A program made the position numbers and the translations under genes. From Alloascoidea hylecoeti (lineage: Eukaryota), in NCBI GenBank assembly GCA_001600815.1, contig BCKZ01000003.1, positions 1,289,474 through 1,353,473 on the forward strand: a stretch of 64,000 nucleotides of DNA. Direction: 5' to 3'. This document shows positions 1 through 23,540 of the stretch, piece after piece. The first letter of the stretch is position 1; every line of letters begins with the position of its first letter. The notes beneath the pieces are model-generated. The model saw nothing but the letters and a program-made list of their open reading frames with translations, was not told the origin of the DNA and searched no databases.

Positions 1-1978
1 AATGTACTCAATAATAGTGAATCAGTAATTTCATCGTTCATTTCTAATCCACCACTCTCAAGATCTCGCAAATATTGTTGAAATTTAATCACCATCAAAT
101 CTTAAACTGATGATCTCTCTTAACAAAATAGGTACTGACTTTTGGTAGTGAAATACCTTCTTCAAGTTCACATAACTTGTTAAAGCACCTTTTCTAACAT
201 CAATGTAGACCTGTAGATCGACCGCTGTTGATCCCAGCAAAATAGTCATCACATTGTCGTAGTTATTATCTGTTTATTATATATATCTGTTCTATCAAAA
301 CAAGTGGAAATGGCTAAACTATATAGTAATTACTAAATATCGATCCTTACTTCATAAACTAACCACAACAAACCTTAATATTCAACACAACAAATCTTAA
401 TCTCCAACATATGAAAATTCCCAAAAATTAGTTATAGATGGATATCTCTGAAGAGAACAAATCAATTATTTTTACGGTAATATATGAAAAGCTTGTTTAT
501 CGTACTTTTTAACAATGATCACAAACATAATTTCGATACAAAGTATTTTTGCGAGAGAAAATTAAGAGACGTTGCCCATAAATATAGTATCTGTTATATT
601 ATGATAGACAATTCAGCCGGGTTTATGATAGTATTATTGACATCATCTTAATATGGGCTTTGAGAGAAAAATAAAAGTTGGAGAGTTGCATAGAGATGGC
701 CATTATTGACTGTAATGATGTCAATAATGAATTCGCAGTTGATGATATTTTAGTAGTCAATTTTGAGAATACACAATACAAGTGAAGTACTATCTTCATT
801 AGGACATTTTTTCCAATAACAAACTTTTCTTAAAAAACAAATTCTCTGTGAATCATCAACTATCCTACTCGATGGTAATTCCGGTGTAAAAATTATTCTT
901 AGTGACTTATTCCGTGGTACTGAAAAATCGCTAAAAATACTAGCTGTAGCAAAAAGAGAAGAATTTAAATTTAAATTTTTATAATTAACGTCATTGTTCA
1001 CGTTTCTTTCAAAATCGGTAGTTGATGTTGGAATTATATCTTCCATTCTTGCGTATCCAAATTATTCACTTGATTTATTGATTATTGTATCCCTAAATAT
1101 ACCCACAAAAATGATTAGTTATAATCCTAGACATATTGTTTTTTAAAAAATCGTTTGAATTTTTCAATATTATGGCTTTGGGTTAGATATTGTGAATGAT
1201 GATTATAATAGGTATCCAAATTTACTGTTGAATTGTTATCAGATTCATCATGGTTATTGTTATCAATTTTATCATTATTAATCTTCTTATTATTATCCTT
1301 TTTCATTCTTATAATTAATAATAGCACATCCACTTTTTAATTAAGATGAACATGATATTTACTAGATTTTCATAGAAACGAAAGATTTTATAAATCAATT
1401 GCAAGATTTACGAATTATTAAACGTAGTATAAAACATCTATTTGAAATAGCACACACCAAAATTTAATGTCATAATTAACTGTAAACTCATGTATTTCTC
1501 CTCCATCAGAAAATCTTAATATTAATGACAATATTATTCACAACCCATAACTTTAACAAGCACATTTATTTTTATAATAACATTGATATTGAAATCAATC
1601 TGGCTAAAATGAAAAATTAAAAACACTATGCTAAAAGAAAGGGGCAATTGTTCAGATATCATCATTTGGAAGAAGTTAAGCATAAAATAATATTTATTTC
1701 GGTTCGTGATTTCGAATATCTTGGGAAAATCACTTCTTTATATAGATAAACTCGTATCTTTAATTAATATTGCCATTAAAAACGCCGGTAACACAGTGAT
1801 TTTGGTTTTTGGTTGTAGTATTTACAATTATCATTGGCCAATCATTACAAATTACATTTTTTACTTATAAGTTATAATGAAGATATTTAAAATATTTTTA
1901 GAGTTCAGTCTTTTAGTATGAAATTCCACAATCAAAATATAATATTCATAACAGTACTGGAGAATATAGATATTAATC

Positions 1979-2277
1979 TGCAAATCATGCATTTCTATCT
2001 TACCTGTCATCTTTATTTTCTACTTGAAAACTTTCTATTTCTACGTGACTTATCATGTGATTTTTCATCTATCTGTTTAATATTCTCTTATGAGAATCCT
2101 TCTCACCTTTCTTATGCTCTTATAGCACTTACTCCACTTTATTATTTTCGTATACTACTTACATAGCTAACTATATAAAGGACAAAATCTTCTTAAAGGA
2201 TTTTGGCTCCTTAACCTTTTTTCTTTAATACAATTAATATTAACTACTTTTACAAACTTACAATTTACAATTTTTCT
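1979..2277 (+). repeat. 5' LTR (~299 bp)
   Basis: Starts with TG directly after TAATC and contains TATATAAA near 2172. Its last 95 bp match 7042-7136. The left boundary is inferred from the TSD only. Confidence 0.75.
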
Positions 2278-2291
2278 GATTTCCAATCTTT
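2278..2291 (+). promoter_or_regulatory. primer-binding site, complementary to the anticodon arm of tRNA-Ser(IGA)
   Basis: GATTTCCAATCTTT begins exactly where LTR identity ends. Its reverse complement AAAGATTGGAAATC matches the yeast tRNA-Ser(AGA) arm as I recall it (AAAGATTAGAAATC), except at position 34. Confidence 0.65.
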
Positions 2292-2306
2292 TCAAACTAA
2301 CCGGTC

Positions 2307-3613
2307 ATGGTACAGTTTGAATTTGAAGAAGATTTCGATGTGTCTCATGACATATTCAAATCCACCCAAACGGCGTTTAAAAACGTCCATTTCTCAAGTT
2401 TGAGAAAGGATATTTTTTTCCTGTGTTGAAATCCTGGCTAGCCATTAAAATGAAAACTATCGTTGATCCTACCAAGTTTGACATAGCAAAATTCTTAAAG
2501 GCTGATAAAGTGAATCGTTATCCGGCTAATTTCTGTTTATTATTAGAATACTTAATTCGTCTTCGTTTTTCGGAGGATCTCCTCAAACGTTATCGTTCTC
2601 AGTTAAATGGTGTTGAATTATACCTTAAATTAAATACAAGCTACTCATCTCTTAGTGTCATCACTAGGACTAATCTTTTACAAGAGTTTTTCTCCGATGC
2701 TGCTTCCTCTGGTACTATGTTGAATAATTTTGAAAACAAAACTATTGTCATGGAATTCTATTTTTCTGGTATTAAACCCTTTTTACCTTATATTGCACTG
2801 TTCATGTTATCAAATGAACAAAAAGATAAAGTTTTGTCTAAGTTAAATTTTGTTAATAATAATACTGATGTTGAAAAATTTCAAAATAGTGACTATATGG
2901 ATATTTTAACTGAAATTACTGATTTGTCTGAACAAGGAATTGTTACTCTTAAACCTAAATTACCCACCACTGTTGTTGCTGATGAAGCTCACTACCACGA
3001 ACAAAAAGACTGGTCAAGATATCGTTGTTACAAATGTAAAAAATTCGGACACATTTGGTCTCGTTGCCCATTACTAAAAGGAAAAAAGTTTAAAAAACAT
3101 TGGGAGACTGTTCAATATATTGAATTACCTGCTGAAGCTGATATTTACTATTGCTCCAGAGATGTTGACGATAATGATGAACATGAGGTATCCTTGGCTG
3201 AAGAAGTGTTCTATGTATCCGATATTGAATTCATCATTGATTCAGGAGCTACCTGTCACGTTGTATCTAATCAATCTATTTTAAATAACATTCGTCCTTC
3301 CAATACTTCTATTAAAGGTGTTGATGGTCACTCGGTCTCTACTGTTGAAGGTGATTTACAACTTGGTAACTTGTGTTTGAATAATGTGAAGGTGATGCCT
3401 AATACTAATCGTAACATTATTTCTGGTGATATTCTGTCAAAACAAGGATTTAAAATTGAACTTGATAATGATAAGGTTTCCGTTTCTAAAGACAATAAAA
3501 CTTACTTAACTTGTCCCAAAAAGGGAAGACTTTGGTCTGTTACTGCTAATGATGCTAAAGAAGAAATTGCTCTTAATACTGAATCTGATATTATTGATCA
3601 ATTTCATTTTTGA
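2307..3613 (+). pseudogene. retrotransposon gag-protease (frameshift at T7 run 2413-2419; truncated by an inverted insertion)
   Basis: ATG at 2307; CCHC knuckle CYKCKKFGHIWSRC; copia protease motif FIIDSGATCH. Confidence 0.88.
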
Positions 3614-3806
3614 CAGTAAATACCCATCTAGAAGGGATAACTTGTTTTCCATGAGCATCACTTCGGTCAACGACTTCAACCACTTCGTTTGCGTAGAAAG
3701 CATTGAGTTCCATGTTCATTGCAGATAACCAATTGTCCTTCTCGGTAGAGTTCATAACATCCTTATAAGTAGTTGGAATCTGATATTTGCTTATTCTAAA
3801 AATATC

Positions 3807-5468
3807 ATGTCCAAGTCTGATGTCTCTAATACTGCTATTATTTTGTTAAGACGTTTTCAAAATCTCCTCTCGACTCATAATCGTAAGATTGTGTATCTTC
3901 GAGCTGACAATGAATACGATACTTTGGCTATTAAGGATTTTTGTGATATCAATGGAATTATTTTGCAGCTTACAGCTCCCCACTCGTCCTATCAAAACGG
4001 GTTTGCTGAAAATCAAAACAAACTATTGGAAGATAAGGTTAAAAAACTGCTTGATCAATCTAATGTTCAAAAAGAATACTGGACTTTTGCTTTACAACAT
4101 GCTACTTTCATTAATAACAGTGTTTGCCGACCTGGTGTTGAGAAAACTCCTTACGAACTTATCTCTGGTAAATCTATGTCTCGTAAATCATTTATTCCAT
4201 TTGGTTGTAAAATTATTGTTTACAATTATGAAGTTAGGCAAAAGATATTTAAGCAGAATATTCATGGTGTGTTTCTTGGTTATCAAGGTACTACCAAGAT
4301 TGTTAATGTTTTATGTTCTGATGGTAGAATTGTTAAAAGTTCTGCATTTAATGTTGACCCCAATATTTTTCCTTTGTTAGGTTCTTCTGGTTCTTCTGGT
4401 TATTCTGGTTCTTCTGGTTCTTCTGGTTCTCCTTCTATAATGAATTCTGTTCCCTTTACTCCACATCACACTTCTGAACTTACTCCTATCAATTTAGAAT
4501 CCCCCGATGACATCAACGTTCCTCTCAATACCTCTGACTCTACTCCGGTTCCCGTTGATTCCGATTCTCCTGAATTTATTCCTGAATCTAGCTCTGATGT
4601 TGAAATGGATGCTAGTGATGAAAGTCTTCGTGATACTTTGAGTTCTCCTATTTTGAGTAATGACATTTCTAGTTCTCCCTTGGTTAAAGTTACTTATGAT
4701 ACAAATATTGGTACNGATAATGATACTTCTGAAGTCGAAACATTCAATAAATCTGCTTCNACTGATATTGTCAACAATGACATTGCTACATCTCCTTTAC
4801 ACCATTATACTGCAAATTCTCCTATTATTGAGTCTCCTTCTGAAGACTTCAGTTCTTCTTGTTCATCACCCTCTCAATTGNTATTAGAATCTTCTCAACC
4901 AATTGAAAATTCACTAGTTAGAAAACATACAGTTTTATCTGACGATGACCTCTCCAGTCCACTTGATCCTTTGACTATTGTTAGTAACACAAGGTTTTCT
5001 AAAGCAAGAACTGCTATTCTTCCTGATGGCGCCAAAATTATAAAACGTTATCAAAAACCTGTCTCTGAAGCTAAATCTCCTTTGTTGTTGTTGACGTCTG
5101 GTGATAATCAAGAAATGTTTTCTGATCACGAAGAAGTTCAATTGTTAGTCAATAAAAGCAAATATCAGATTCCAACTACTTATAAGGATGTTATGAACTC
5201 TACCGAGAAGGACAATTGGTTATCTGCAATGAACATGGAACTCAATGCTTTCTACGCAAACGAAGTGGTTGAAGTCGTTGACCGAAGTGATGCTCATGGA
5301 AAACAAGTTATCCCTTCTAGATGGGTATTTACTGTCAAAAATGAAATTGATCACGACCGCTTTAAAGGAAGAATCGTTGCAAAAGGTTATAAACAAGAAC
5401 TCGGACAGGATTTTGTTGATATTTACGCACCCGTTTGTTCATATGAAACTTTAAGGTTTATTTATTGA
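3807..5468 (+). pseudogene. integrase core (N-terminus lost), Ser-rich linker and RT N-terminus
   Basis: Integrase motifs LRADNEY and TAPHSSYQNGFAE; RT-start motifs IPTTYKDVM..W..AM..EL, SRWVF, FKGRIVAKGY.Q. Confidence 0.9.
4380..4430 (+). repeat. 9-bp tandem repeat GGTTCTTCT (GSS)n
   Basis: About five units visible, encoding GSSGSSGYSGSSGSSGS. Confidence 0.9.
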
Positions 5469-5487
5469 CAAACACAAATTATGGAAG

Positions 5488-6648
5488 GTGAAAAAGGCTG
5501 TTTATGGTCTGCGACAAAGTCCCAACCTCTGGTTTGAAACCCTTGCTTCTAACCTTAAGCAAATGGGATTTAAACAAAGTAATCTTGAACCCTGTTTGTT
5601 TAGCAAAGTTGATAGTCTCATTCCAGTTTATGTGGATGATTCATTTATTGCTGCTCCTAACAGTCAAATATTGAATGATATCAAATCAAGAATCAAACAG
5701 AAGTTTCCTATTAAAGACCTTGGTTTCCCTAGCACCTTTTTAGGTATGTCAATTACCAGAACCTCTTCCGGTGGAATCAAACTATCTCTTAAGGATTTTC
5801 TTACTAAACTTGAAAGTGATTACCAAATTATTAAAGGTAAACAGTTGCTTACTCCTTTAATTAAAGGTTTCAATCCATATGAGTCCTCAAAACCCTTGGA
5901 AACTAAAGACATCAAAAAATACCAATCAATTGTTGGAGTTATCAATTTCATTTCAAATACCGCTAGACCTGATGTTTCTTTTGCTGCTTCACTTTTATCA
6001 CGGTTTCTTGTTAACCCAAATGTTATTCATCTTAAGACTGCTTATAGAGTACTCCAATTTCTTGTTCAAAGTAAGGAAAAGGGAATCTGTTATGAAAAGA
6101 ACTCATCATTTTTACCCTATAAAGACTTTAGGTACTTAGACACAACCAAGAACGTTTCTATTGTTGACTATCCTAAACTTGGCAAGTATACTATCACTGC
6201 TGTTTCTGATTCTGATCATGCTGCTGACGTCAACGACCGGATTTCTCAAACCGGTTATGCTATATACATCAATAACAATCTAGTTACTTGGTGTTCGCGT
6301 AAACAAAAGAGTGTCTCCATCTCAAGTACCGAAGCCGAATATATGTCCTTAAGCGAATGTTCCAGAACTGGTCTATATTTTAGGAATTTAATGGAAGAAC
6401 TCAACTTAGATGTGTCTTATATTGATTTAGTAAGTGATAACAGATCTGCATTAATTCTAGCCGCCCATAAGTATAATCATTCAAAAACTAAACATATAGC
6501 TATCCATTACCATTTCATTCGAAACTTAGTCAAAAATAAAGTAGCTAAGCTCAACTATATTAATACTTCTGAAAATGTTTCAGATATTTTAACCAAAACT
6601 CTTGATACAACTTCCTTTACCAAACTTTCTTCTAAGTTACTCAATTAA
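5488..6648 (+). pseudogene. RT C-terminal part and RNase H
   Basis: KKAVYGLRQSP, VYVDD, RPDVSFA, SDSDHA, SSTEAEY, KTKHIAIHYHFIR, DILTK. Confidence 0.92.
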
Positions 6649-6671
6649 ATATTCTTTTACTTTCGATTATA

Positions 6672-7041
6672 NNNNNNNNNNNNNNNNNNNNNNNNNNNNN
6701 NNNNNNNNNNNNNNNNNNNNNNNNNNNNNNNNNNNNNNNNNNNNNNNNNNNNNNNNNNNNNNNNNNNNNNNNNNNNNNNNNNNNNNNNNNNNNNNNNNNN
6801 NNNNNNNNNNNNNNNNNNNNNNNNNNNNNNNNNNNNNNNNNNNNNNNNNNNNNNNNNNNNNNNNNNNNNNNNNNNNNNNNNNNNNNNNNNNNNNNNNNNN
6901 NNNNNNNNNNNNNNNNNNNNNNNNNNNNNNNNNNNNNNNNNNNNNNNNNNNNNNNNNNNNNNNNNNNNNNNNNNNNNNNNNNNNNNNNNNNNNNNNNNNN
7001 NNNNNNNNNNNNNNNNNNNNNNNNNNNNNNNNNNNNNNNNN
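6672..7041. other. assembly gap (N run)
   Basis: 370 Ns. Confidence 1.
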
Positions 7042-7136
7042 CAAAATCTTCTTAAAGGATTTTGGCTCCTTAACCTTTTTTCTTTAATACAATTAATATT
7101 AACTACTTTTACAAACTTACAATTTACAATTTTTCT
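7042..7136 (+). repeat. visible 3' part of the 3' LTR
   Basis: Identical to 2183-2277 and followed by TAATC. The rest is hidden in the N-gap. Confidence 0.9.
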
Positions 7137-7587
7137 TAATCATACACAATTATCTGGAGATAACAAAGAGATGTGTGTTGGAAGCTTGGACTTAGTCAGG
7201 TTGATCAGACAAATCGTAGAAGAATGCTCACATCATAACAAGATTTTCAAACATATATAAAGAGAATTATTAGATTAATTGAAATTTAGTAATACTATTC
7301 TTAATATAAGTTTGTTGCTGTCCTGTATGTTTTAGAAGGCTTTTTTTATTCCGATGGTTATTCATGACAATAACAGGTTAAAATCATGGAATGACAATAT
7401 TTCATAAATATAATCAAGTTAAATTATATTATTATTAATACCATTTCTTAAGATTATAAATTATACATATATACGTATATTAGAGTTTTCTAGGAACTAT
7501 GGAGGATTGATATTATAAATTTATTTCATTTGAACCTTGATTATTAAGGAATGACAAATGATTATTCATTTCTTAATAGAATCATAA

Positions 7588-8712: not shown

Positions 8713-9951
8713 ATGTCACTAGATTCTGTTTCCGATCTCCCTAATGAAATATCTCAAATAATCTTCTCAGATTTGTCAATTGCAACTTTACTTAATTGTA
8801 GAAAAGTTTCTAAATCATGGAAACAAATAACCGCAAACGATGGTATATGGAAATCAAAGTTTCAAGATCAAAAATATTGGAAATATTATAATGATGATTC
8901 AGAAACTGACTCGTGGTATGAATTATACAAAGAACGCTATCTTTTAGAATTAAATTGGAAAAATGGTAAATTTTCAACGCGTGAATTAAATTGTTATTCT
9001 ACCGTGACATGTTGTGTATTTTTTAAAAACTGGATTATTACTGGTTCAACGGAATTTACAATAAATATTTGGGATAATGAAACCTTTCAATGTTTAAGAA
9101 CACTAGGTAAATCAAGTTCCGAGATTTCAAGAGAAAATTTATCTGATAGTGAACTATTGGAATTAGCAAATGATATTGATAACATATTACCTTTCGGTGC
9201 AATTAATTGTATGGATATTAATGATGAATATTTGATTTCTGGTTCAATTGATTCTTCTTGTATAATTTGGAAATTACCAGATTTTAAGCCAATACAACGT
9301 CTGGTACCACCTGCGGAAGAACCTGGTTTACCTATAAATTATGTTAGATTATACAATGATTACATTGTAGGTTGTAATGATGAGTTCATTAGTGTTTGGA
9401 AATCAAGTCTTGATAATTTAGAAGATCAACCACCGTTGAATCTACAGCACAGTTTAGTAGTAAAAGGTCGCCTTAATGATGTTTGCATTCATAATGATAT
9501 TATATATTGTACTACAAAGTATGGATCTGTAATAAGATCTTGGTATATTGAAACTGGTCAAATGATCCAAGAATTTCGAAATAAAGAAGCAGCAAGCATT
9601 ACAGCAAATGATCAATACTTATTTGTTAGTGATTACAACAAAATAACAGTTTTGGATTTAGATACATATGAAACAACGAAAATTTTATGGGGTAAAGGAA
9701 CACTTTCATTATTTATAGTTAATGATAAAATCATTTCTGTTTATGATAGTTTTATTATTAGGATTTGGAATTTAAATGATTTAAAATTATTAAAAGAGTT
9801 TGAATATGTGCCATATGATTGGATTAGATTTAGCCCTATTTTTTCAATTAGTGCTGATTCGAAAAAGCTAGCTGCTTTTACTATGATAGGTGGTCTTGCT
9901 ATTTGTGATTTTACTAAAGAATTAAGGAGAAAATATTTAAAACATTTATAA
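8713..9951 (+). CDS. F-box/WD40 protein, copy A
   Basis: F-box LPNEISQIIFSDL..LLNCRKVSKSW, about 7 WD-like blades, C-terminus LRRKYLKHL. Confidence 0.9.
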   Translation: MSLDSVSDLPNEISQIIFSDLSIATLLNCRKVSKSWKQITANDGIWKSKFQDQKYWKYYNDDSETDSWYELYKERYLLELNWKNGKFSTRELNCYSTVTCCVFFKNWIITGSTEFTINIWDNETFQCLRTLGKSSSEISRENLSDSELLELANDIDNILPFGAINCMDINDEYLISGSIDSSCIIWKLPDFKPIQRLVPPAEEPGLPINYVRLYNDYIVGCNDEFISVWKSSLDNLEDQPPLNLQHSLVVKGRLNDVCIHNDIIYCTTKYGSVIRSWYIETGQMIQEFRNKEAASITANDQYLFVSDYNKITVLDLDTYETTKILWGKGTLSLFIVNDKIISVYDSFIIRIWNLNDLKLLKEFEYVPYDWIRFSPIFSISADSKKLAAFTMIGGLAICDFTKELRRKYLKHL

Positions 9952-11759
9952 TCTATTGAAAATTGGAAGTTGAAAATAAATATATCGTTGCCCAAAGAAA
10001 TTTCAATTAAATAGATTTAATATTATCAATCCTCTTCTCCAGAAGAATTAACATAAATCTAATAATATTAGGAAGCATTTTATCATATTAATATTAATGT
10101 AATTTAACTTGATTGTATTTATGAAATATTAACATTCCATGTTGATAACCCATTATAAACTATTATGATTTAAATTTATAAGTTGATCCTCCTGAGCATT
10201 TGGCACTTTTCTTTTACTATGCATATATAAGCCTATGAGGCCTTATGGCTGAAAAACCTACACCATTAATATTCATTCTACTCTGTAATATTGAAATGGC
10301 CACAGCGTTTTTTTGTATCTAGGAACCTTTGAAATTGATATCAATGTATTGGGTTCAAGTGCCGTTTGTTCCAAACATTTTACAATTTTAGACTACTTGC
10401 TCCTTCATGTTTCAAACCAAAGAACAGCGGTTATCGCTAATCAGGTATAAATAGTGAGTACCGACTCTGTTACTGATTATTCTCGATATTCTGCATATTT
10501 GACTTCATATTATATCCTGAGGATGTGCAAGATTACCCATGCCATCTACTTAACCAGGCATACGCACATGATAGTTTAGTTCTGCTTTTTTTTCTTTTTG
10601 ATTCCTATTCTGAAAAATATTTGTATTTTCACAGATGATTCTTACAAAGAAGAGCCTATTGAAAGAAATTGGTCTATCCAAAATATATATCAAATATATT
10701 ACAGATGTTGTAATTGGATGAACTTTTCTTCTTGGAACGAAATAACTAATTAGGTAGACGAAATCAGCGTTAACATAGCTGTTGGTATAATCATTGGGTT
10801 CAATGGGTTTGTATGGTGAATGTTTTCCAATTTATAGCTTTGAATTAAAATTTTAAATTTGATATATTAAAGAAAACTAATGAAACAAATGATACTTACA
10901 CGCAGACACAGATCAAGCTTTTTTTCAAACATCTACAAGCTACGCGTATACTGAATACTCTACAAAGCCCTAAACCAATTTAATATTCTGAAAATAGTCC
11001 ATAATGTTCTGAAAATACTGGAGACTATATTAGACTATATATATAAAATGGCCATTTAAATTTAGTATTTAGTGTTGACCTCAAGTATTTTTTTCTTATT
11101 ATTTCAATGGATTGTGGAGGGAAGAAAATATGGGATTTATATTAATCTGGGTATATTAATCTGGTATCTCTCTAATATAACCAATCCTCTATGTCCCTTA
11201 TATATATTTCTCAATTTACAAGTAGTCAAAGCAGAATCAGTGAAAGTAAGGAAAGTCATTATAATTGGAATATTAGAGTACACTCAGTACACTCAGCACA
11301 GTATATACTCTATGTGTAGTATATGTTAATTAACAAATATGAGAAATCAAGAAAATGTGAGTATTTACCAATATATTTACCTTTGAAAGTTATAAACTTT
11401 ACGGTTAGATTAAGGAGTAAAATGAATTAGGTTATTAATATTCTTGCTACAATGCTATTACAGCTTGAATTTAGTGTTCGATATCCATTCTTGAGTAGTT
11501 GACAGTTGCAAGAGGTCAGCAACTTTTTGGCGTAACTGTTTCAACATCGCCTTTACTAATTAATACATGTGATAATGGGGCAATAAAAATCCCAAGCCCT
11601 AGTTAAATTTTAAAAAAATGTTTTAAATATAGCTCATGGTGGTATTGCTGGTATATGACTTACACATACAGGGTGAAATCCAGTACGGGTACAGTACAAA
11701 AAGATTTTGTTGCCGTTCTCCGATATGAGAAAATCTTATCCCATTAATCACCAACAACT

Positions 11760-12130
11760 CTACTTAATTGTTTTGTGAAGAATTTCCAAATCATAAAAAC
11801 CAATAGTTGATCAATGATGATTCAGAAACTAATTCATGGTATGAATTATATAAAGAACGTTATCTTTTAGAATTAAATTGGAAAGAATGATAAATTTAAA
11901 CAGTATACTTGGATTATGGTTCATTCTTAAATCACGTACTGCAATTACGTTACAATTTTTTAAAAAAATGGGTTATAACTGGTTCAACAAATTGGTACAA
12001 AACGATTTCGGGGTAATGAAATCTATCAATGCTTGAGTAGTTGGTGAACCGAATCTTGATATTTTAGGACAGGTGTTCTAACTAAACCTGGAGAATATTG
12101 AGAAAAATATTTATCAACAAAGGGAATTTT
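11760..12130 (+). pseudogene. degenerate F-box/WD40 N-terminal fragment
   Basis: DDSETNSWYELYKERYLLELNWK and WVITGS-like remnants, with indels. Confidence 0.8.
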
Positions 12131-13060: not shown

Positions 13061-14290
13061 ATGTCCTTACACAACAATCTTGAGACTACAATCGGTTTTG
13101 TTTCCGATCTCCCTAATGAAATATCTCAAATAATCTTCTCAGATTTGCCACCAAAAACCTTACTTAATTGTAGAAGAGTTTCTAGATCATGGAAACTAAT
13201 AGCTGAGAATGATAATATATGGAAATCAAAGTTTCAAGATCAAAAATATTGGAAATATTATAATGATGATTCAGAAACTGATTCATGGTACGAGTTATAT
13301 AAAGAACGATATATTTTAGAAAAGAATTGGATAAATGATAGATTTATACAGCATAAGCTAAGCGGCCATTCTGATGAAACACATTGTGTTAAATTTTTTA
13401 AAAATTGGATTTTAACTGGTTCAGATGATTGTACAATAAGAATTTGGGATAACGAAACCTTTGAATGTTTAAGAGTTCTAGGTAGACCAAATCCCGAGAT
13501 TATAAGAGAAAATTTATCAGCAGTTGAAACAAATGAATTTCATATGAGTGAAGTTAGATGTATGGATATTAATGATAAATATTTGGTTTCTGGTACATCT
13601 GATGGTTGTTTAATTTGGAAAATGCCAGACCTTAAACCAATAAAACGTCTTGTAACATCAACACAAGATAGTTTTACATTTATAAATGGTGTTACTTTAT
13701 ACAATGATTATATTATATGCCATTGTTTTGAGTATATTGAGATTTGGAAATCAAGTCTTGATGTTTTAGAAAATCGATTAGAGTTTAATATACAACACCG
13801 TTTAAAAGGAGATGGTTTCATTAGTGATTTTTGCAATCATGGTATTATATATTGTAGAAAATTTAGAGGTATAGGATCCTGGAATATTGAAACTGGTCAA
13901 ATGATTCAAGAATTTCAATATAATCAAGCAGTATGCCTCACAGTAAGTGATCGATACTTATTTGTTAATCAATGTGACAAATTAATAGTTGATGATTTAC
14001 AAACAAATAAAACAATAAAAATTTTATCAAATGAAGGAGCAGTTTCATTATTTATAATTAATAATCAAATAATTTCTATTAATGATGAATCAACTATTAA
14101 GATTTGGAATTTAAATGATTTAAAATTATTTAAAGAATTTAAAAATTTAAAATATGAAGAATTAAATTTATGGCCTATTTGTTCAATTTGTTGTGATTCA
14201 AAAAAACTAGCTGCTTTCACTATCGATGGTGATGTTGTTATTTATGATTTTACTGAAAAATTAAGGAAAAAATATTTAAAATATTTATAG
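13061..14290 (+). CDS. F-box/WD40 protein, copy B
   Basis: Intact 409-aa ORF: F-box, GHSDETHCVKF..TGSDDCTIRIWD, tail LRKKYLKYL. Confidence 0.93.
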   Translation: MSLHNNLETTIGFVSDLPNEISQIIFSDLPPKTLLNCRRVSRSWKLIAENDNIWKSKFQDQKYWKYYNDDSETDSWYELYKERYILEKNWINDRFIQHKLSGHSDETHCVKFFKNWILTGSDDCTIRIWDNETFECLRVLGRPNPEIIRENLSAVETNEFHMSEVRCMDINDKYLVSGTSDGCLIWKMPDLKPIKRLVTSTQDSFTFINGVTLYNDYIICHCFEYIEIWKSSLDVLENRLEFNIQHRLKGDGFISDFCNHGIIYCRKFRGIGSWNIETGQMIQEFQYNQAVCLTVSDRYLFVNQCDKLIVDDLQTNKTIKILSNEGAVSLFIINNQIISINDESTIKIWNLNDLKLFKEFKNLKYEELNLWPICSICCDSKKLAAFTIDGDVVIYDFTEKLRKKYLKYL

Positions 14291-16734: not shown

Positions 16735-19700
16735 ATGTCGCGATCACAAATAGAAGAAACTCGATTGAATGAGAAGTTTAACTATGCAAGTCTACCTCCC
16801 CACTTCATCGGATTGAATAAAGTTGATGTTGCAGAGGCAGGTCCCGTCAAGGATTTTGTTCTATCACACGAAGGCCATACGGTTATCACTTCCGTAAGTT
16901 TAAATATATACACTTGAGACAGCTGGCACCGAGCTATACTTATAAGAAGTTAGCTGCTAATATTTCTTGTTTTCAATAGATTCTCATTGCGAACAATGGT
17001 ATCGCTGCTGTTAAAGAAATCAGATCTGTACGTAAATGGGCGTATGAGACATTCGGTGATGAGCACATAATATCATTCACCGTAATGGCTACTCCGGAAG
17101 ATCTGGAAGCAAACGCTGAATATATCAGAATGGCTGATCAATTTATTGAAGTCCCTGGTGGTACGAATAATAATAACTACGCCAATGTGGACCTCATTGT
17201 AGATGTTGCAGAAAGAACTAACGTTCATGCTGTTTGGGCTGGTTGGGGGCATGCTTCTGAAAATCCCGATTTACCTGAGAAATTAGCAATGTCTCCAAAG
17301 AAAATTGTATTTATTGGTCCTCCTGGTAATGCAATGAGATCTTTGGGTGATAAAATCTCTTCTACAATTGTTGCACAACATGCCAAAGTACCATGCATTC
17401 CTTGGTCTGGTACTGGAATTGATACAGTTCATGTGGATCCAAAGACAAATTTAGTATCCGTAGATGATAATATTTACAATCAGGCCTGTTGTAGCTCTCC
17501 AGAAGATGGTTTGGTTAAAGCGCGTAAAATTGGTTATCCTGTTATGATCAAAGCATCTGAAGGTGGTGGTGGTAAAGGTATTAGACAAGTTGAAAAAGAA
17601 GAAGATTTTATAAGATTGTATCACCAAGCTGTTGATGAAATTCCTGGTTCTCCAATATTTATAATGAAATTAGCTGGAGGAGCTAGACATTTAGAAGTTC
17701 AATTATTAGCTGATGAGTATGGTAATAATATTTCTTTGTTTGGTAGGGATTGTTCTGTTCAAAGACGCCATCAAAAAATAATCGAGGAAGCTCCAGTTAC
17801 AATTGCTAAAGAAGGTACATTTGCCAAAATGGAAGAAGCGGCTATTAGACTTGGTAAATTAGTCGGTTATGTTTCTGCTGGTACAGTTGAATATCTTTAT
17901 TCTCATGATGATGATAAATTCTATTTTTTGGAGCTTAATCCTCGTCTACAAGTTGAACATCCAACTACAGAGATGGTATCAGGTGTTAATTTACCAGCTG
18001 CTCAATTACAAATTGCAATGGGTATTCCTTTACATAGAATACAAGATATTAGGTTACTTTATGGTACAAGTATTCATACTTCAACAAGAATTGATTTTGG
18101 ATTTTCCTTGGAATCATCATCTAAAACTCAACGAAGACCTAAACCAAAAGGTCATATAACTGCTGTTAGAATTACTTCTGAAGATCCAAGAGATGGATTT
18201 AGACCTTCTTCGGGTATGATACATGACTTAAATTTTCGTTCTAGTTCTAATGTCTGGGGATATTTCTCTGTTGGAAATCAAGGTGGAATTCATTCTTTTT
18301 CTGATTCTCAATTTGGTCATATTTTTGCATATGGTGAAAATAGACAAGCCTCAAGGAAACATATGGTTGTTGCTTTAAAAGAATTATCAATTAGAGGTGA
18401 TTTTAGAACAACTGTCGAATATTTAATAAAATTATTAGAAACTGAAGATTTTGAAAAGAATAAAATTACTACTGGATGGTTAGATGAACTTATTTCAAAT
18501 AAATTAACTGCAGAAAGGCCAGATCCTACTGTAGCAATTATTTGTGGGGCAGTTACAAAAGCTGAAGCTGCTTATGAGGAACAGATTAAACAGTATACTA
18601 CTTCTTTAGAAAGGGGACAAGTAACTTCTCATGATGTGGTGAATACCTCTTTCCCTGTGGAATTTATTTATGAAGGGAAACGCTATGAATTTACTGTAAC
18701 TAAATCTTCTCCGGATTCGTATACTTTGTTCATAAATGGATCTAGAGCCGAGATTGGTGCTCGTTCATTAACAGACGGTGGATTATTAATATCAATTGGC
18801 GGTAAAAGTCATAGCGTTTTTACAAAGGAAGAAGTCGGTGCTACAAGATTATCAATTGATTCCAAAACATGTCTTTTAGAAGTTGAAAATGATCCAACAC
18901 TACTAAGATCCCCATCTCCTGGTAAGTTAGTTAGATATCTGGCTGAAAATGAAGATCATATCAAAGCTGGCCAAACATATGCTGAAGTTGAAATCATGAA
19001 AATGTCTATGCCGTTAATTTCTCAAGAAGATGGTACTATTCGTCTGATAAAACAACCTGGATCTATCATCACTGCTGGTGATATTTTGGCAATTATATCT
19101 TTAGACGATCCTTCAAAACTTCAATATGCTTTACCTTTTGAAGGAAACTTACCCGATCTTGGAAGTCCCAATAACATTGGTACTAAACCTGCTCAAAAAT
19201 TTATGCATTATTCAAATATTATTGAGAATACTTTAGCTGGTTTTGATAATCAAGTTTATATCAAAGATTCATTGGAAGAGCTTATTAAGGTTTTAAGGGA
19301 CCCACAATTACCATACAGCATATGGAAATTTCAAATTTCATCTCTTCATAGTAGAATACCTCAAAAATTAGATGATAATTTGAATGGTATAATTGAAAGA
19401 ACACAACAAAGGCATCATGATTTCCCATCTAGACAATTATTAAAAACAATTGAAAAATATCAAAAATTGGAAAATTCTTCAATTTTTAATGAAATTGTCT
19501 CGCCATTATTAAAAATATCAAAAGATTTTGAAAATGGAATTATTAGTCATGAATATTCAATTTTATCTAAGATATTAGATGAATATTATAATGTTGAAAT
19601 TATGTTTTGTGGATCTATGACTCGTGATGAAGATATTATTTTAAAATTAAGAGATGATAATAAAGATAATATTAATTGGGTCGTTAATACAGCAAGATCT

Positions 19701-22700
19701 CATAGTAGAGTTGGATCAAAGAATAATCTTATATTATCTATATTGGCTGATTATAAATTACCTGCCTCTGGTAATTCTGAACTTGCAGGTTATTTAAAAC
19801 CTTCCTTAAAGAAAGTCGTTGAGTTAGATTCAAGAAGAACTTCAAAAGTTGTACTTAAAGCTCGGGAAATTCTTATTCAATGCTCATTACCATCTTTAAA
19901 AGAAAGGTACGATCAATTGGAATATATATTAAAATCATCAGTATTAGAAATGAGTTATGGTGAAATGGGTTTGGATCATTGTACTCCAAATTATAGTGTT
20001 TTAAAAGATGTAATAGATTCAAAATATGTTGTGTTTGATGTTTTACCACAATTTTTTATACATAATGATCCTTGGGTTTCATTGGCGGCATTAGAACTTT
20101 ATATTCGCAGAGCTTACAGAGTTTATAAAATTAATGAAGTAAATTATAACCAAGAACCTGGATATCCTTCGATAGTTGACTTCAAGTTCACACTTCCATC
20201 TCGCGATCAAGACTTTCATGGTGTTGATCCGTCAACTTCGGCTAGTGCAAGTGATGAAAGCATGTCACGAGCTGCTTCAATATCTGATCTATCTTTAATA
20301 TCTTCTGGCATTAACAGATCGGGTGTTATTTGTCCGGCTGCTCAAATTGACGATGTTGACGAATCAATCTCAAGAGCCCTCGATATTTTTCCAAGGAATA
20401 CAGAAGATATGTTATCTACGATGAAGAAAAATGCATTACCTTCTAGGGGAAGTACAATGAATGGAGCTCGGGGTACACTAAGCAATGTATTAATTATCCC
20501 AATTTTAGGTGTTGAAGGTCGTGAAACAGAAGAATCACAATTGAGTTATTTCAATGAGATACTTGAGTTCTTTAAAAATGATTTAATTTCTTGTTCAGTT
20601 CGTCGGATTACTTTTGTATCGGGACTCAAACTGGGGGTGTATCCAAATTATTATACATTTAGAGGACCAGATTATGAAGAGTTTAAAGAGATTAGACATA
20701 TTGAACCATCCCTTGCATTTCAACTAGAATTGGGTAGGCTTTCAAATTTTAATATTAAACCTGTCTTCACTGAAAATAAAAACATTCATGTCTATGAAGC
20801 AGTTGGAAAAAATTCTCCAAATGATAAAAGATTTTTTACAAGAGGAATTATAAGACCTGGTAGGATTAGAGATGATATCAGTATTGCTGAATATCTTATT
20901 TCAGAGTGTCATAGATTGATGACTGGTATTTTAGATACATTGGAAATTCTTGGTACTGCAGACTCAGATTTGAATCATATTTTTATCAATTTCTCTTCTG
21001 ACTTTCATGTCACACCACTAGAAGTGGAAGCTGCTTTTGGTGGATTTTTAGAGAGATTTGGTAGACGTTTATGGCGACTTCGTGTAACAGCTGCTGAAGT
21101 GAGAATTAAATGCTCCGATCCAGAAAATGGTATTATATTCCCATTAAGGGCAATAATCAATAATGTATCTGGATATGTTGTTAAATTTGAAATGTATATC
21201 GAACAGAAAAATTCAAAAGGTGAATGGGTATTCAAGTCAATTGGAAAACCGGGAAGTATGCATTTAAGAAGCATCTCAACACCTTATCCTAATAAAGAAT
21301 CTTTACAGCCCAAGAGGTTTAAAGCGCATGTAATAGGAACTACTTATTGTTATGATTTCCCCGATTTATTCAGTCAGGCAATTGCTTCCGCATGGAAGGA
21401 ATATAAAGATGATGAAATTCCCGAAAACTTCTTTTCTTCGAAAGAATTAATATTGGAAGATGGAAATGAATTACTGGAAGTAACACGAGATGCTGGGGCT
21501 AATAATATTGGTATGATAGCTTGGAAGATGTCCGCTAAAACCCCGGAATATCCTCGCGGCAGAGACTTTATAGTAATAGCCAATGATATTACTTTTAAGA
21601 TTGGTTCATTTGGTCCACAGGAAGATACATTTTTTAACAAGGTTACTGAATTATGCAGGACGCTAGGACTTCCAAGGATTTATCTTGCTGCCAATTCAGG
21701 TGCTCGTTTAGGATTAGCAGATGAGTTGATTTCATTATTTTCAGTTTCTTGGAAAGATCCTCAGGATCAATCCATGGGATGTGATTATCTCTTTCTAACA
21801 CCAGAAAACAAAAGGCTCATTGAAAAAAAGACTAAAAGCAATGTAGTACAATGTGAACGAATTATTGAGAATGGTGAAGAAAGATATAAAATCAACTGCG
21901 TAATTGGTGCTGAAGAGGGTTTAGGAGTCGAATCCTTACGTGGCTCAGGGCTAATTGCGGGTGCTACTTCCAAGGCATATAAGGATATTTTCACTATCAC
22001 TTTGGTAACCTGTAGATCTGTGGGAATTGGAGCATATTTAGTTCGTTTAGGTCAAAGGGTAATTCAAGTTGAAGGACAGCCTATTATTCTGACTGGTGCT
22101 CCGGCCATTAACAAACTTTTAGGAAGGGAAGTTTATAGTTCCAATATACAGCTTGGTGGTACTCAAATTATGTACCGAAATGGTGTATCACATTTAGTCG
22201 TAAATGGCGATCTCAGTGGGATAGAGAAAATGATCAATTGGTTATCATATATCCCAGCTAAGAAGGGAATGCCAGTACCATTTTTAGAATCCAGCGATAC
22301 CTGGGATCGAGATGTTGAATATACGCCACCTAAAAATGAATCATTTGATGTCAGGTGGATGATAGCTGGTCGAGAAACTCCAGAAAGATTCGAACATGGT
22401 CTTTTTGATAAGGCTTCCTTTCAAGAGACTCTTGGAGGATGGGCAAAAACTGTTATAGTTGGCCGAGCACGTATTGGTGGAATTCCCTTAGGTGTTATTG
22501 GTGTTGAGACAAGAATGGTAGAGAATCTATATCCTGCTGATCCAGCCAATCCAGATTCTACTGAGATGCTGATACAAGAAGCTGGACAAGTGTGGTATCC
22601 AAATTCTGCTTTCAAGACTGCACAAGCTATAAATGACTTTAATCATGGTGAAGAACTTCCATTAATGATACTCGCAAATTGGAGAGGGTTTTCTGGTGGA

Positions 22701-23540
22701 CAGAGAGATATGTATAATGAAGTTTTGAAATATGGCTCCTTTATTGTTGATGCTTTGGTTGACTTTAAACAACCAATATTTATTTACATACCTCCTTTGG
22801 GGGAATTAAGAGGAGGTTCATGGGTAGTAGTAGATCCCACAATTAACTCCGATATGATGGAGATGTACGCAGATGAAGAATCGAGAGGAGGAATTCTTGA
22901 GCCTGAGGGAATTGTTGGTATAAAGTTCAAGAAAGAGAAGTTACTTCTTACAATGGAGAGACTCGATCCGGAATATGCTAAATTGAAATCAGAATCATTA
23001 AAAAGTGGGTTATCGCAGGAGGAGTTTATAGAAGCAAGTTCTAAGTTGAAGGAAAAAGAAGAAGCTTTATTACCGATATACACACAAATTAGTCTTCAAT
23101 TTGCGGATCTTCATGATCGTGTTGGTCGTATGGAGGCAAAAGGTGTAATTAGGAAGTCCTTAAAATGGCGCGAAAGCCGTCGGTTTTTCTTTTGGAGGAT
23201 TCGAAGAAGATTAAATGAAGAATATTTACTAAAGCGGATTGGTGATGAATTGCCTACTTCTTCCAGGTTGGAACGATTTGCTCGTTTTCGCTCCTTGATT
23301 TGCCTTGATAATGATTTAGAAATTGAGAATGATCGATCTATTGCTATGTGGATTGAAGATAATTACAAAAAGATTGATTCATTCATAGGAGAGCTACACC
23401 AAGAAAGTATAATAAATGGTATGGCTAGTCTTTTAAGATCCGATAAACAAGCGACTGTCAATGGAATCATCCAGACCATGTCTAGTTTAGGTCTTTCCGA
23501 AAAAGAGAGAAGCCAGATAATCAAATCCCTCGCCAAATAG
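16735..23540 (+). CDS. ACC1: acetyl-CoA carboxylase; exons 16735-16893 and 16980-23540
   Basis: Intron GTAAGT...TGCTAAT...TAG joins HTVITS to ILIANNGIAAVKEIRS in frame. Biotin-attachment motif EIMKM; Snf1-site-like MSRAASISDLS; BC, BCCP and CT domains. Confidence 0.99.

Follow-up and report, generated by a model that had tools for sequence, protein, structure and literature searches.

Half-molecules of tRNA have been described as primers of reverse transcription for the copia element (Kikuchi 1986) and for Ty5. According to their description, the Bianca copia elements of plants have primer sites complementary to half-molecules of tRNA-Ile (1/2tRNA-Ile) that are edited post-transcriptionally by conversion of A34 to inosine (Neumann et al. 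2019, PMC6317226). In the survey of Kojima (2024, PMC10886601), Copia and Helenus elements of fungi are reported to use the anticodon loops of five tRNAs, namely tRNA-Tyr, Ile(AAT), Asp, Asn and initiator Met (iMet), while an internal region of tRNA-Lys is reported for the FunCo1 elements and internal regions of tRNA-Arg(UCU) and iMet for the gamma/Tca2-type families of Candida albicans. Such a diversity of internal tRNA primers in fungal copia elements indicates that primer switching within copia is common. Serine tRNA is mentioned in the same survey only as a 3′-end primer, in bivalve Helenus elements (PMC10886601).

In the window (the whole stretch of DNA analysed here, 64 kb in length, from an AT-rich yeast), the domain content of the ORFs and the repeat comparison reveal a copia-type LTR retrotransposon at ~1979-7136, ~5.16 kb long (Table 1). 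Between its repeats there are three ORFs in three frames, containing Pol_BBD, an SH3-like integrase domain and RVT_2, the last of these Pfam domains being detected in two of the ORFs (E 1.3e-11 and 1.4e-25). The domains follow the order gag-PR-IN-RT-RH, with the integrase core and the SH3-like domain ahead of RVT_2 in the ORF at 3807-5468. Therefore, the presence of RVT_2, Pol_BBD and the SH3-like integrase domain, together with the PR-IN-RT-RH order, assigns the element to the copia type, as had been proposed from the sequence alone in an earlier note on this DNA. The linker between integrase and RT contains a low-complexity stretch, GSSGSSGYSGSSGSSGS, at 4380-4430.

The limits of the element were derived from a direct repeat, 2183-2277 and 7042-7136, in which 95 of 95 nucleotides are identical; these 95 nt are the comparable part of both LTRs, the remainder of the 3′ LTR lying under the N run at 6672-7041. 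The identity breaks off exactly at 2277/7136, the two copies being followed by G and T, respectively. The flanking TAATC pair is a plausible target-site duplication, held with moderate confidence, and would give an LTR of 299 bp; over the 371 nt examined, chance would produce TAATC alone 1.1 times, but TAATC with a subsequent TG 0.04 times. TG...CA termini are a usual, not strictly defining, trait of Ty1/copia. Here, both LTR copies terminate in ...TTTTTCT (2270-2277 and 7129-7136) instead of the usual CA, with a putative TG start, and a terminal inverted repeat is absent from the LTR. The 5′ LTR also contains a TATATAAA motif at 2172-2179. Elsewhere in the window, we found two tandem paralogous F-box/WD40 genes (8713-9951 and 13061-14290; 72-82% DNA identity over repeat blocks) with a partial third copy between them (11723-11988), and an acetyl-CoA carboxylase gene at 17085-23540.

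Table 1. Coordinates of the copia-type element and its parts, numbered from the first base of the window.
Feature	Position	Strand	Remarks
Candidate left target-site duplication, TAATC	1974-1978		Identical to 7137-7141; followed by TG
5′ LTR, ~299 bp	1979-2277	+	Start deduced from the duplication, end firm; begins TG, ends CT
Putative primer binding site, GATTTCCAATCTTT	2278-2291	+	Complementary to tRNA-Ser(AGA) nt 27-40; nt 34 is faced by C
gag with CCHC zinc knuckle, and protease (DSGAT)	2307-3613	+	ATG at 2307; long ORF 2450-3613; Pol_BBD
Inverted fragment of the element's own pol	3603-3788	-	tblastn; corresponds to residues 993-1053 of relative P0121
Integrase core and SH3-like domain, low-complexity linker, start of RT	3738-5468	+	Profile and tblastn map
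Rest of RT (YVDD present) and RNase H	5488-6648	+	Profile and tblastn map
Run of 370 N	6672-7041		Hides 3′ untranslated end, polypurine tract and most of the 3′ LTR (~two thirds)
Visible end of 3′ LTR	7042-7136	+	Identical to 2183-2277
Candidate right target-site duplication, TAATC	7137-7141		Identical to 1974-1978

The 14-mer GATTTCCAATCTTT (2278-2291) follows the 5′ LTR directly, without an intervening base. The trinucleotide TGG, expected in a site for the CCA end of a tRNA, was not found in 2278-2307, and the first one (2308-2310) overlaps the gag start codon, whose ATG at 2307 is only 16 nt downstream of the 14-mer. Therefore, the stretch ahead of the gag ATG lacks a site to which the 3′ end of a tRNA could anneal. 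In contrast, the 14-mer is complementary at 13 of 14 positions to nt 27-40 of the tRNA-Ser(AGA) gene, the sole difference being a C for a T opposite nt 34, and the pairing becomes 14/14 if inosine at this position (I34) pairs with C. The complementarity ends on both flanks: the last LTR bases mismatch nt 41-43, and 2292 is a T where G26 needs a C. In the published sources, the Saccharomyces cerevisiae tRNA-Ser(AGA) is given with AAAGATTAGAAATC at nt 27-40 (bioRxiv 10.1101/422972), and the anticodon-loop probe for the S. cerevisiae cy-tRNA-Ser-AGA contains GATTTCTAATCTTT (PMC7200024, Table 2). These comparisons bear out the earlier note in its description of the site, which it had placed at the first base after the LTR (the LTR identity indeed ends at 2277/7136) and without a TGG-type primer site. 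The yeast anticodon arm that it gave is the one printed in both sources, and the single C-for-T difference falls opposite A34 when matched against the printed nt 27-40.

The distribution of this anticodon arm was surveyed by scanning metagenomes with a pattern formed by the 17-nt arm and the GGTTCGA T-loop motif. This retrieved 77 loci, 75 of which are called tRNA-Ser(AGA) by ARAGORN, and at least five gene bodies, differing in their acceptor, D and variable arms, have the anticodon arm in common; as the arm is fixed by the scan pattern, these counts show that it is widespread, not that it is universal. Across the 136 kb of these 77 loci, copies of the 14-mer are confined to the tRNA genes, and neither a relative of the element proteins nor any similarity to the window was found. 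Among the assembled genome contigs searched, a 24-nt tRNA-Ser probe had no match.

The host gene itself was approached through three sequencing runs of organism A from two studies (X1, X2 and X3), which contain 0.86-0.89 of the sampled words of window positions 1-4714. Contigs of these runs and of X4, a wood-decay metagenome run, were compared with L004:975-1056, at 80% likeness and with a reporting threshold of 1%. X1, X2 and X3 each have one contig of 81-82 nt covering nt 8-82 of the tRNA-Ser(AGA) gene, with four other letters and one gap in relation to L004. All of the listed differences map to the variable arm (1022 C>A, and a base omitted at 1026), and the three unlisted ones must sit near the contig ends, where they fit the gene body type of the Ga0160505 loci. 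No difference is listed in the anticodon arm (1001-1017), and position 1008, corresponding to nt 34, is A in X1-X3. A differing host arm had been named in the earlier note as one of the results that would overturn the reading; the arm in the host-run contigs is identical, with A34. The same tRNA-Ser contig is carried by X4. The word depth of the tRNA contig is several-fold above that of long contigs in the same runs, which fits a multi-copy gene, depth being distinct from copy number. With regard to habitat, the window yeast or a near-identical strain occurs in decaying wood, because X4 contains 0.84 of the sampled words of window 1-4714.

Considering together the sequence of the 14-mer, its location next to the LTR, its agreement with the tRNA gene of the host and the copia-type content of the element, we infer that 2278-2291 is probably the minus-strand primer site for the 5′ half of the host tRNA-Ser(IGA), with an I34:C pair. 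Under this proposal, the cytoplasmic tRNA-Ser(AGA) would be cleaved to give a 5′ fragment ending at about nt 40, which would anneal to the site through nt 27-40, a segment comprising the anticodon loop in full, the stem strand 5′ to it and two bases of the strand on its 3′ side. The inosine at position 34 of the mature tRNA would pair with the C of the primer site to complete a 14/14 duplex, and the reverse transcriptase would then extend the tRNA fragment into U5. Given what is generally known of yeast tRNA modification, m2,2G26 may be the reason why the site reaches its 3′ limit at nt 27. The tRNA-Ser(AGA) also carries i6A37; if present on the primer, this modification would fall inside the duplex and weaken the pairing. 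A cy-tRNA-Ser-AGA probe is listed for the assay of i6A37 modification (PMC7200024).

The essential Tad2:Tad3 enzyme is reported to deaminate A34 to I34 in every eukaryotic tRNA that has A34 (PMC10275265). As nt 34 of the host gene is an A, it is the edited form of this base that the C of the primer site fits. The reason for this C could be either selection for pairing with I34 or copying of the edited primer into the element, and we think that the former is the more likely and the latter the less likely. Indeed, mutations of the primer tRNA are described as not passing into the progeny primer site of Ty1 and Ty3 (PMC5371799), which makes the copying of an edited primer doubtful. The inosine footprint put forward in the earlier note therefore stands insofar as the site fits the edited base of a host tRNA with A34, whereas its idea that the edited base was recorded in the DNA by copying is doubtful in the light of Ty1/Ty3 (PMC5371799).

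The 14-mer could also match the tRNA by chance, priming being ensured by another tRNA or by a Tf1-like self-priming from the element's own 5′ end. With only 14 nt, the sequence is short, besides being AT-rich; it was seen in one copy, and a better-fitting tRNA is conceivable, the host match covering tRNA-Ser only; moreover, self-priming or hairpin sites have precedents in fungal elements, as described for Tf1 and for the conserved hairpin site of GalEa. Nevertheless, we consider this explanation improbable, as the match starts at precisely the base expected for a primer site, the single mismatch coincides with the one edited base, and the 14-mer is the only one of its kind in the 64 kb. In both strands of the window, the 14-mer with at most one mismatch occurs once, against 0.17 occurrences expected from shuffles. 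Similarly, when all window 14-mers, on both strands, were compared with all 69 registers of the reverse complement of the tRNA-Ser(AGA) gene L006, the one at 2278 was the only one within one mismatch. No tRNA or other RNA family was detected in the window using ARAGORN, with and without introns, and Rfam. As for self-priming, no complement of at least 8 nt to 2278-2300 was found in the LTR, where the best candidate, a 7-mer at 2024, is outside the core of the 14-mer; a Tf1-like mechanism is thus unlikely. A possible second contact between the element and the tRNA, TAACCG at 2298-2303 against nt 16-21 of the D-loop, was rejected, as 688 of 2000 shuffles gave an equal result.

A second alternative accepts a genuine tRNA-Ser half-primer site and regards the C as the product of a random T-to-C change during the decay of this copy, with T retained in active ones. 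This copy is plainly damaged elsewhere. It is defective and cannot move by itself, because the N-terminus of the integrase and part of the RT are missing. An inverted piece of pol (~186 bp, 3603-3788, minus strand) replaces the N-terminal, zinc-finger region of the integrase, and residues 478-548 of the full-length relative P0121 have no counterpart in the window element according to the tblastn map. At the frame break at 5462/5488, ~36-50 RT residues are absent: positions 66-117 of the RVT_2 profile are missing and residues 1171-1205 of P0122 are unmatched. In gag, the N-terminus read from the ATG at 2307, MVQFEFEEDFDV..., agrees with those of four full-length relatives, P0121, P0122, P0124 and P0128, but a shift of frame occurs at some point from 2381 to 2427, close to runs of A (2380-2383) and of seven T (2413-2419). 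This shift is a mutation or a homopolymer sequencing error, not programmed frameshifting, since the relatives have a single uninterrupted ORF. In addition, there are three single N within pol (4715, 4760 and 4881), which together with the 370-N run suggest a draft assembly with an unresolved repeat; because of these N runs, some of the defects of the element may be assembly errors. With a single copy seen, and that copy broken, a working primer site is not guaranteed.

Apart from this damage, a chance mutation would be compatible with the pairing properties of inosine, which is described as also pairing with U, so that a T-bearing site could work (PMC6317226). However, the visible LTRs are identical at 95 of 95 positions, and few point changes are thus expected in 14 nt. 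One change would moreover have to strike one specific site out of 14 and to give the best inosine-pairing base, and the Bianca sites are likewise described as fitting the edited base (PMC6317226). We consider a random origin of the C even less probable than a fortuitous match of the whole 14-mer. Finally, a host Ser tRNA gene in which the anticodon is encoded as GGA, or an isodecoder with G34, would match the site perfectly without editing, and such a gene is conceivable insofar as the host match rests on assembled contigs, which can lose rare variants and through which a single-copy variant could escape, instead of on the full tRNA set, but it is very improbable, as no G at nt 34 was reported at the 1% threshold in the assembled contigs of the three host runs or of the wood-decay run. 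To our knowledge, eukaryotes decode the UCN box with A34/I34 tRNAs, as a rule without G34 genes for UCN.

In view of these alternatives, we retain the half-molecule of tRNA-Ser(IGA) as the probable primer. The RT/RNase H ORF has a 96% identical match (P0001) on a 1.9-kb NCBI contig, presumably another copy of the same element, and full-length single-ORF relatives (P0121-P0129; 44-54% identity) were recovered from run and metagenome assemblies; P0001 and P0121-P0129 are known from proteins alone. The nearest named protein is Tkp5 of Vanderwaltozyma polyspora, with 36% identity over RT/RNase H, little more than the 31-33% of the plant copia matches. No relative was found among viral contigs, using either the RT protein or an alignment of six relatives. 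Pieces of yeast copia elements of the same clade were also found in an assembly of Pseudomonas laurentiana (G001; contigs C185, C219 and C166, L078-L082, 506-588 bp), where they have 44-47% identity to the relatives. The contigs of 544 and 506 bp came from an alignment search of genome contigs, and that of 588 bp from a search within this genome; these contigs presumably represent contaminating yeast DNA. The gag N-terminus was not found in the P. laurentiana assembly, and a one-mismatch match to the 14-mer in it is taken as a chance occurrence, as it is located on a large contig and the reversed-pattern control gave two matches.

A joint reading of these relationships and of the primer site would be that an undescribed clade of budding-yeast copia elements, to which the window element would belong together with the relatives at 44-54% RT identity, switched as a whole from iMet to a tRNA-Ser(IGA) half-primer, and that the C is renewed in each cycle by copying of the edited primer. 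We regard this combination as improbable. If true, it would imply primer inheritance in a copia-type element, unlike in Ty1/Ty3, and tRNA editing would be recorded in the genome by the primer site.

Among the known systems, Ty5 and the Ty5-like elements (Tkp5, Tca5 and the elements of W. anomalus and Sa. ludwigii) are likewise copia-type elements of budding yeasts. Ty5 uses the initiator Met tRNA, a feature called diagnostic of the family in one paper, whereas the window element fits Ser(AGA); indeed, its 14-mer does not contain ATG, the complement of the anticodon CAT, so that the element lacks this diagnostic trait of the Ty5 family. The gamma/Tca2-type elements of C. albicans and the Copia elements of rusts and Pezizomycotina are described with internal or anticodon tRNA sites, as here, but with other tRNAs. 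Drosophila copia, the element for which priming by a 5′ tRNA half was first described, differs in its iMet tRNA and its insect host. The Drosophila copia site is 14 nt long, abuts the LTR and corresponds to about nt 27-40, in the same register as in the window element. A further likeness concerns Bianca, whose primer site is described as fitting a half-tRNA edited from A34 to I, just as the window site has a C in relation to the host A34; the two differ in the tRNA (Ile in Bianca, Ser here) and in the host (plants and yeast, respectively), the comparison being with the published description of Bianca.

Neither a Ser half-primer nor the sequence of the 14-mer was found in the open-access literature searched. 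The novelty claimed in the earlier note is thus upheld insofar as no described Ser half-primer was found, and overstated in view of the inosine-edited precedent described for Bianca (PMC6317226). In this literature, what looks new is limited to the use of a Ser tRNA and to the yeast host, and as the mechanism is already established, the gain is incremental. Active copies in a culturable yeast, if any, would open to genetics the production of tRNA halves, the role of I34 and i6A37 in annealing and the inheritance of the primer. In comparison with the systems described so far, this locus would add a serine tRNA to the tRNAs whose 5′ halves can be used by copia-type elements, and it would be the second case, and the first in yeast, of a primer site that fits the inosine-edited tRNA rather than its gene.
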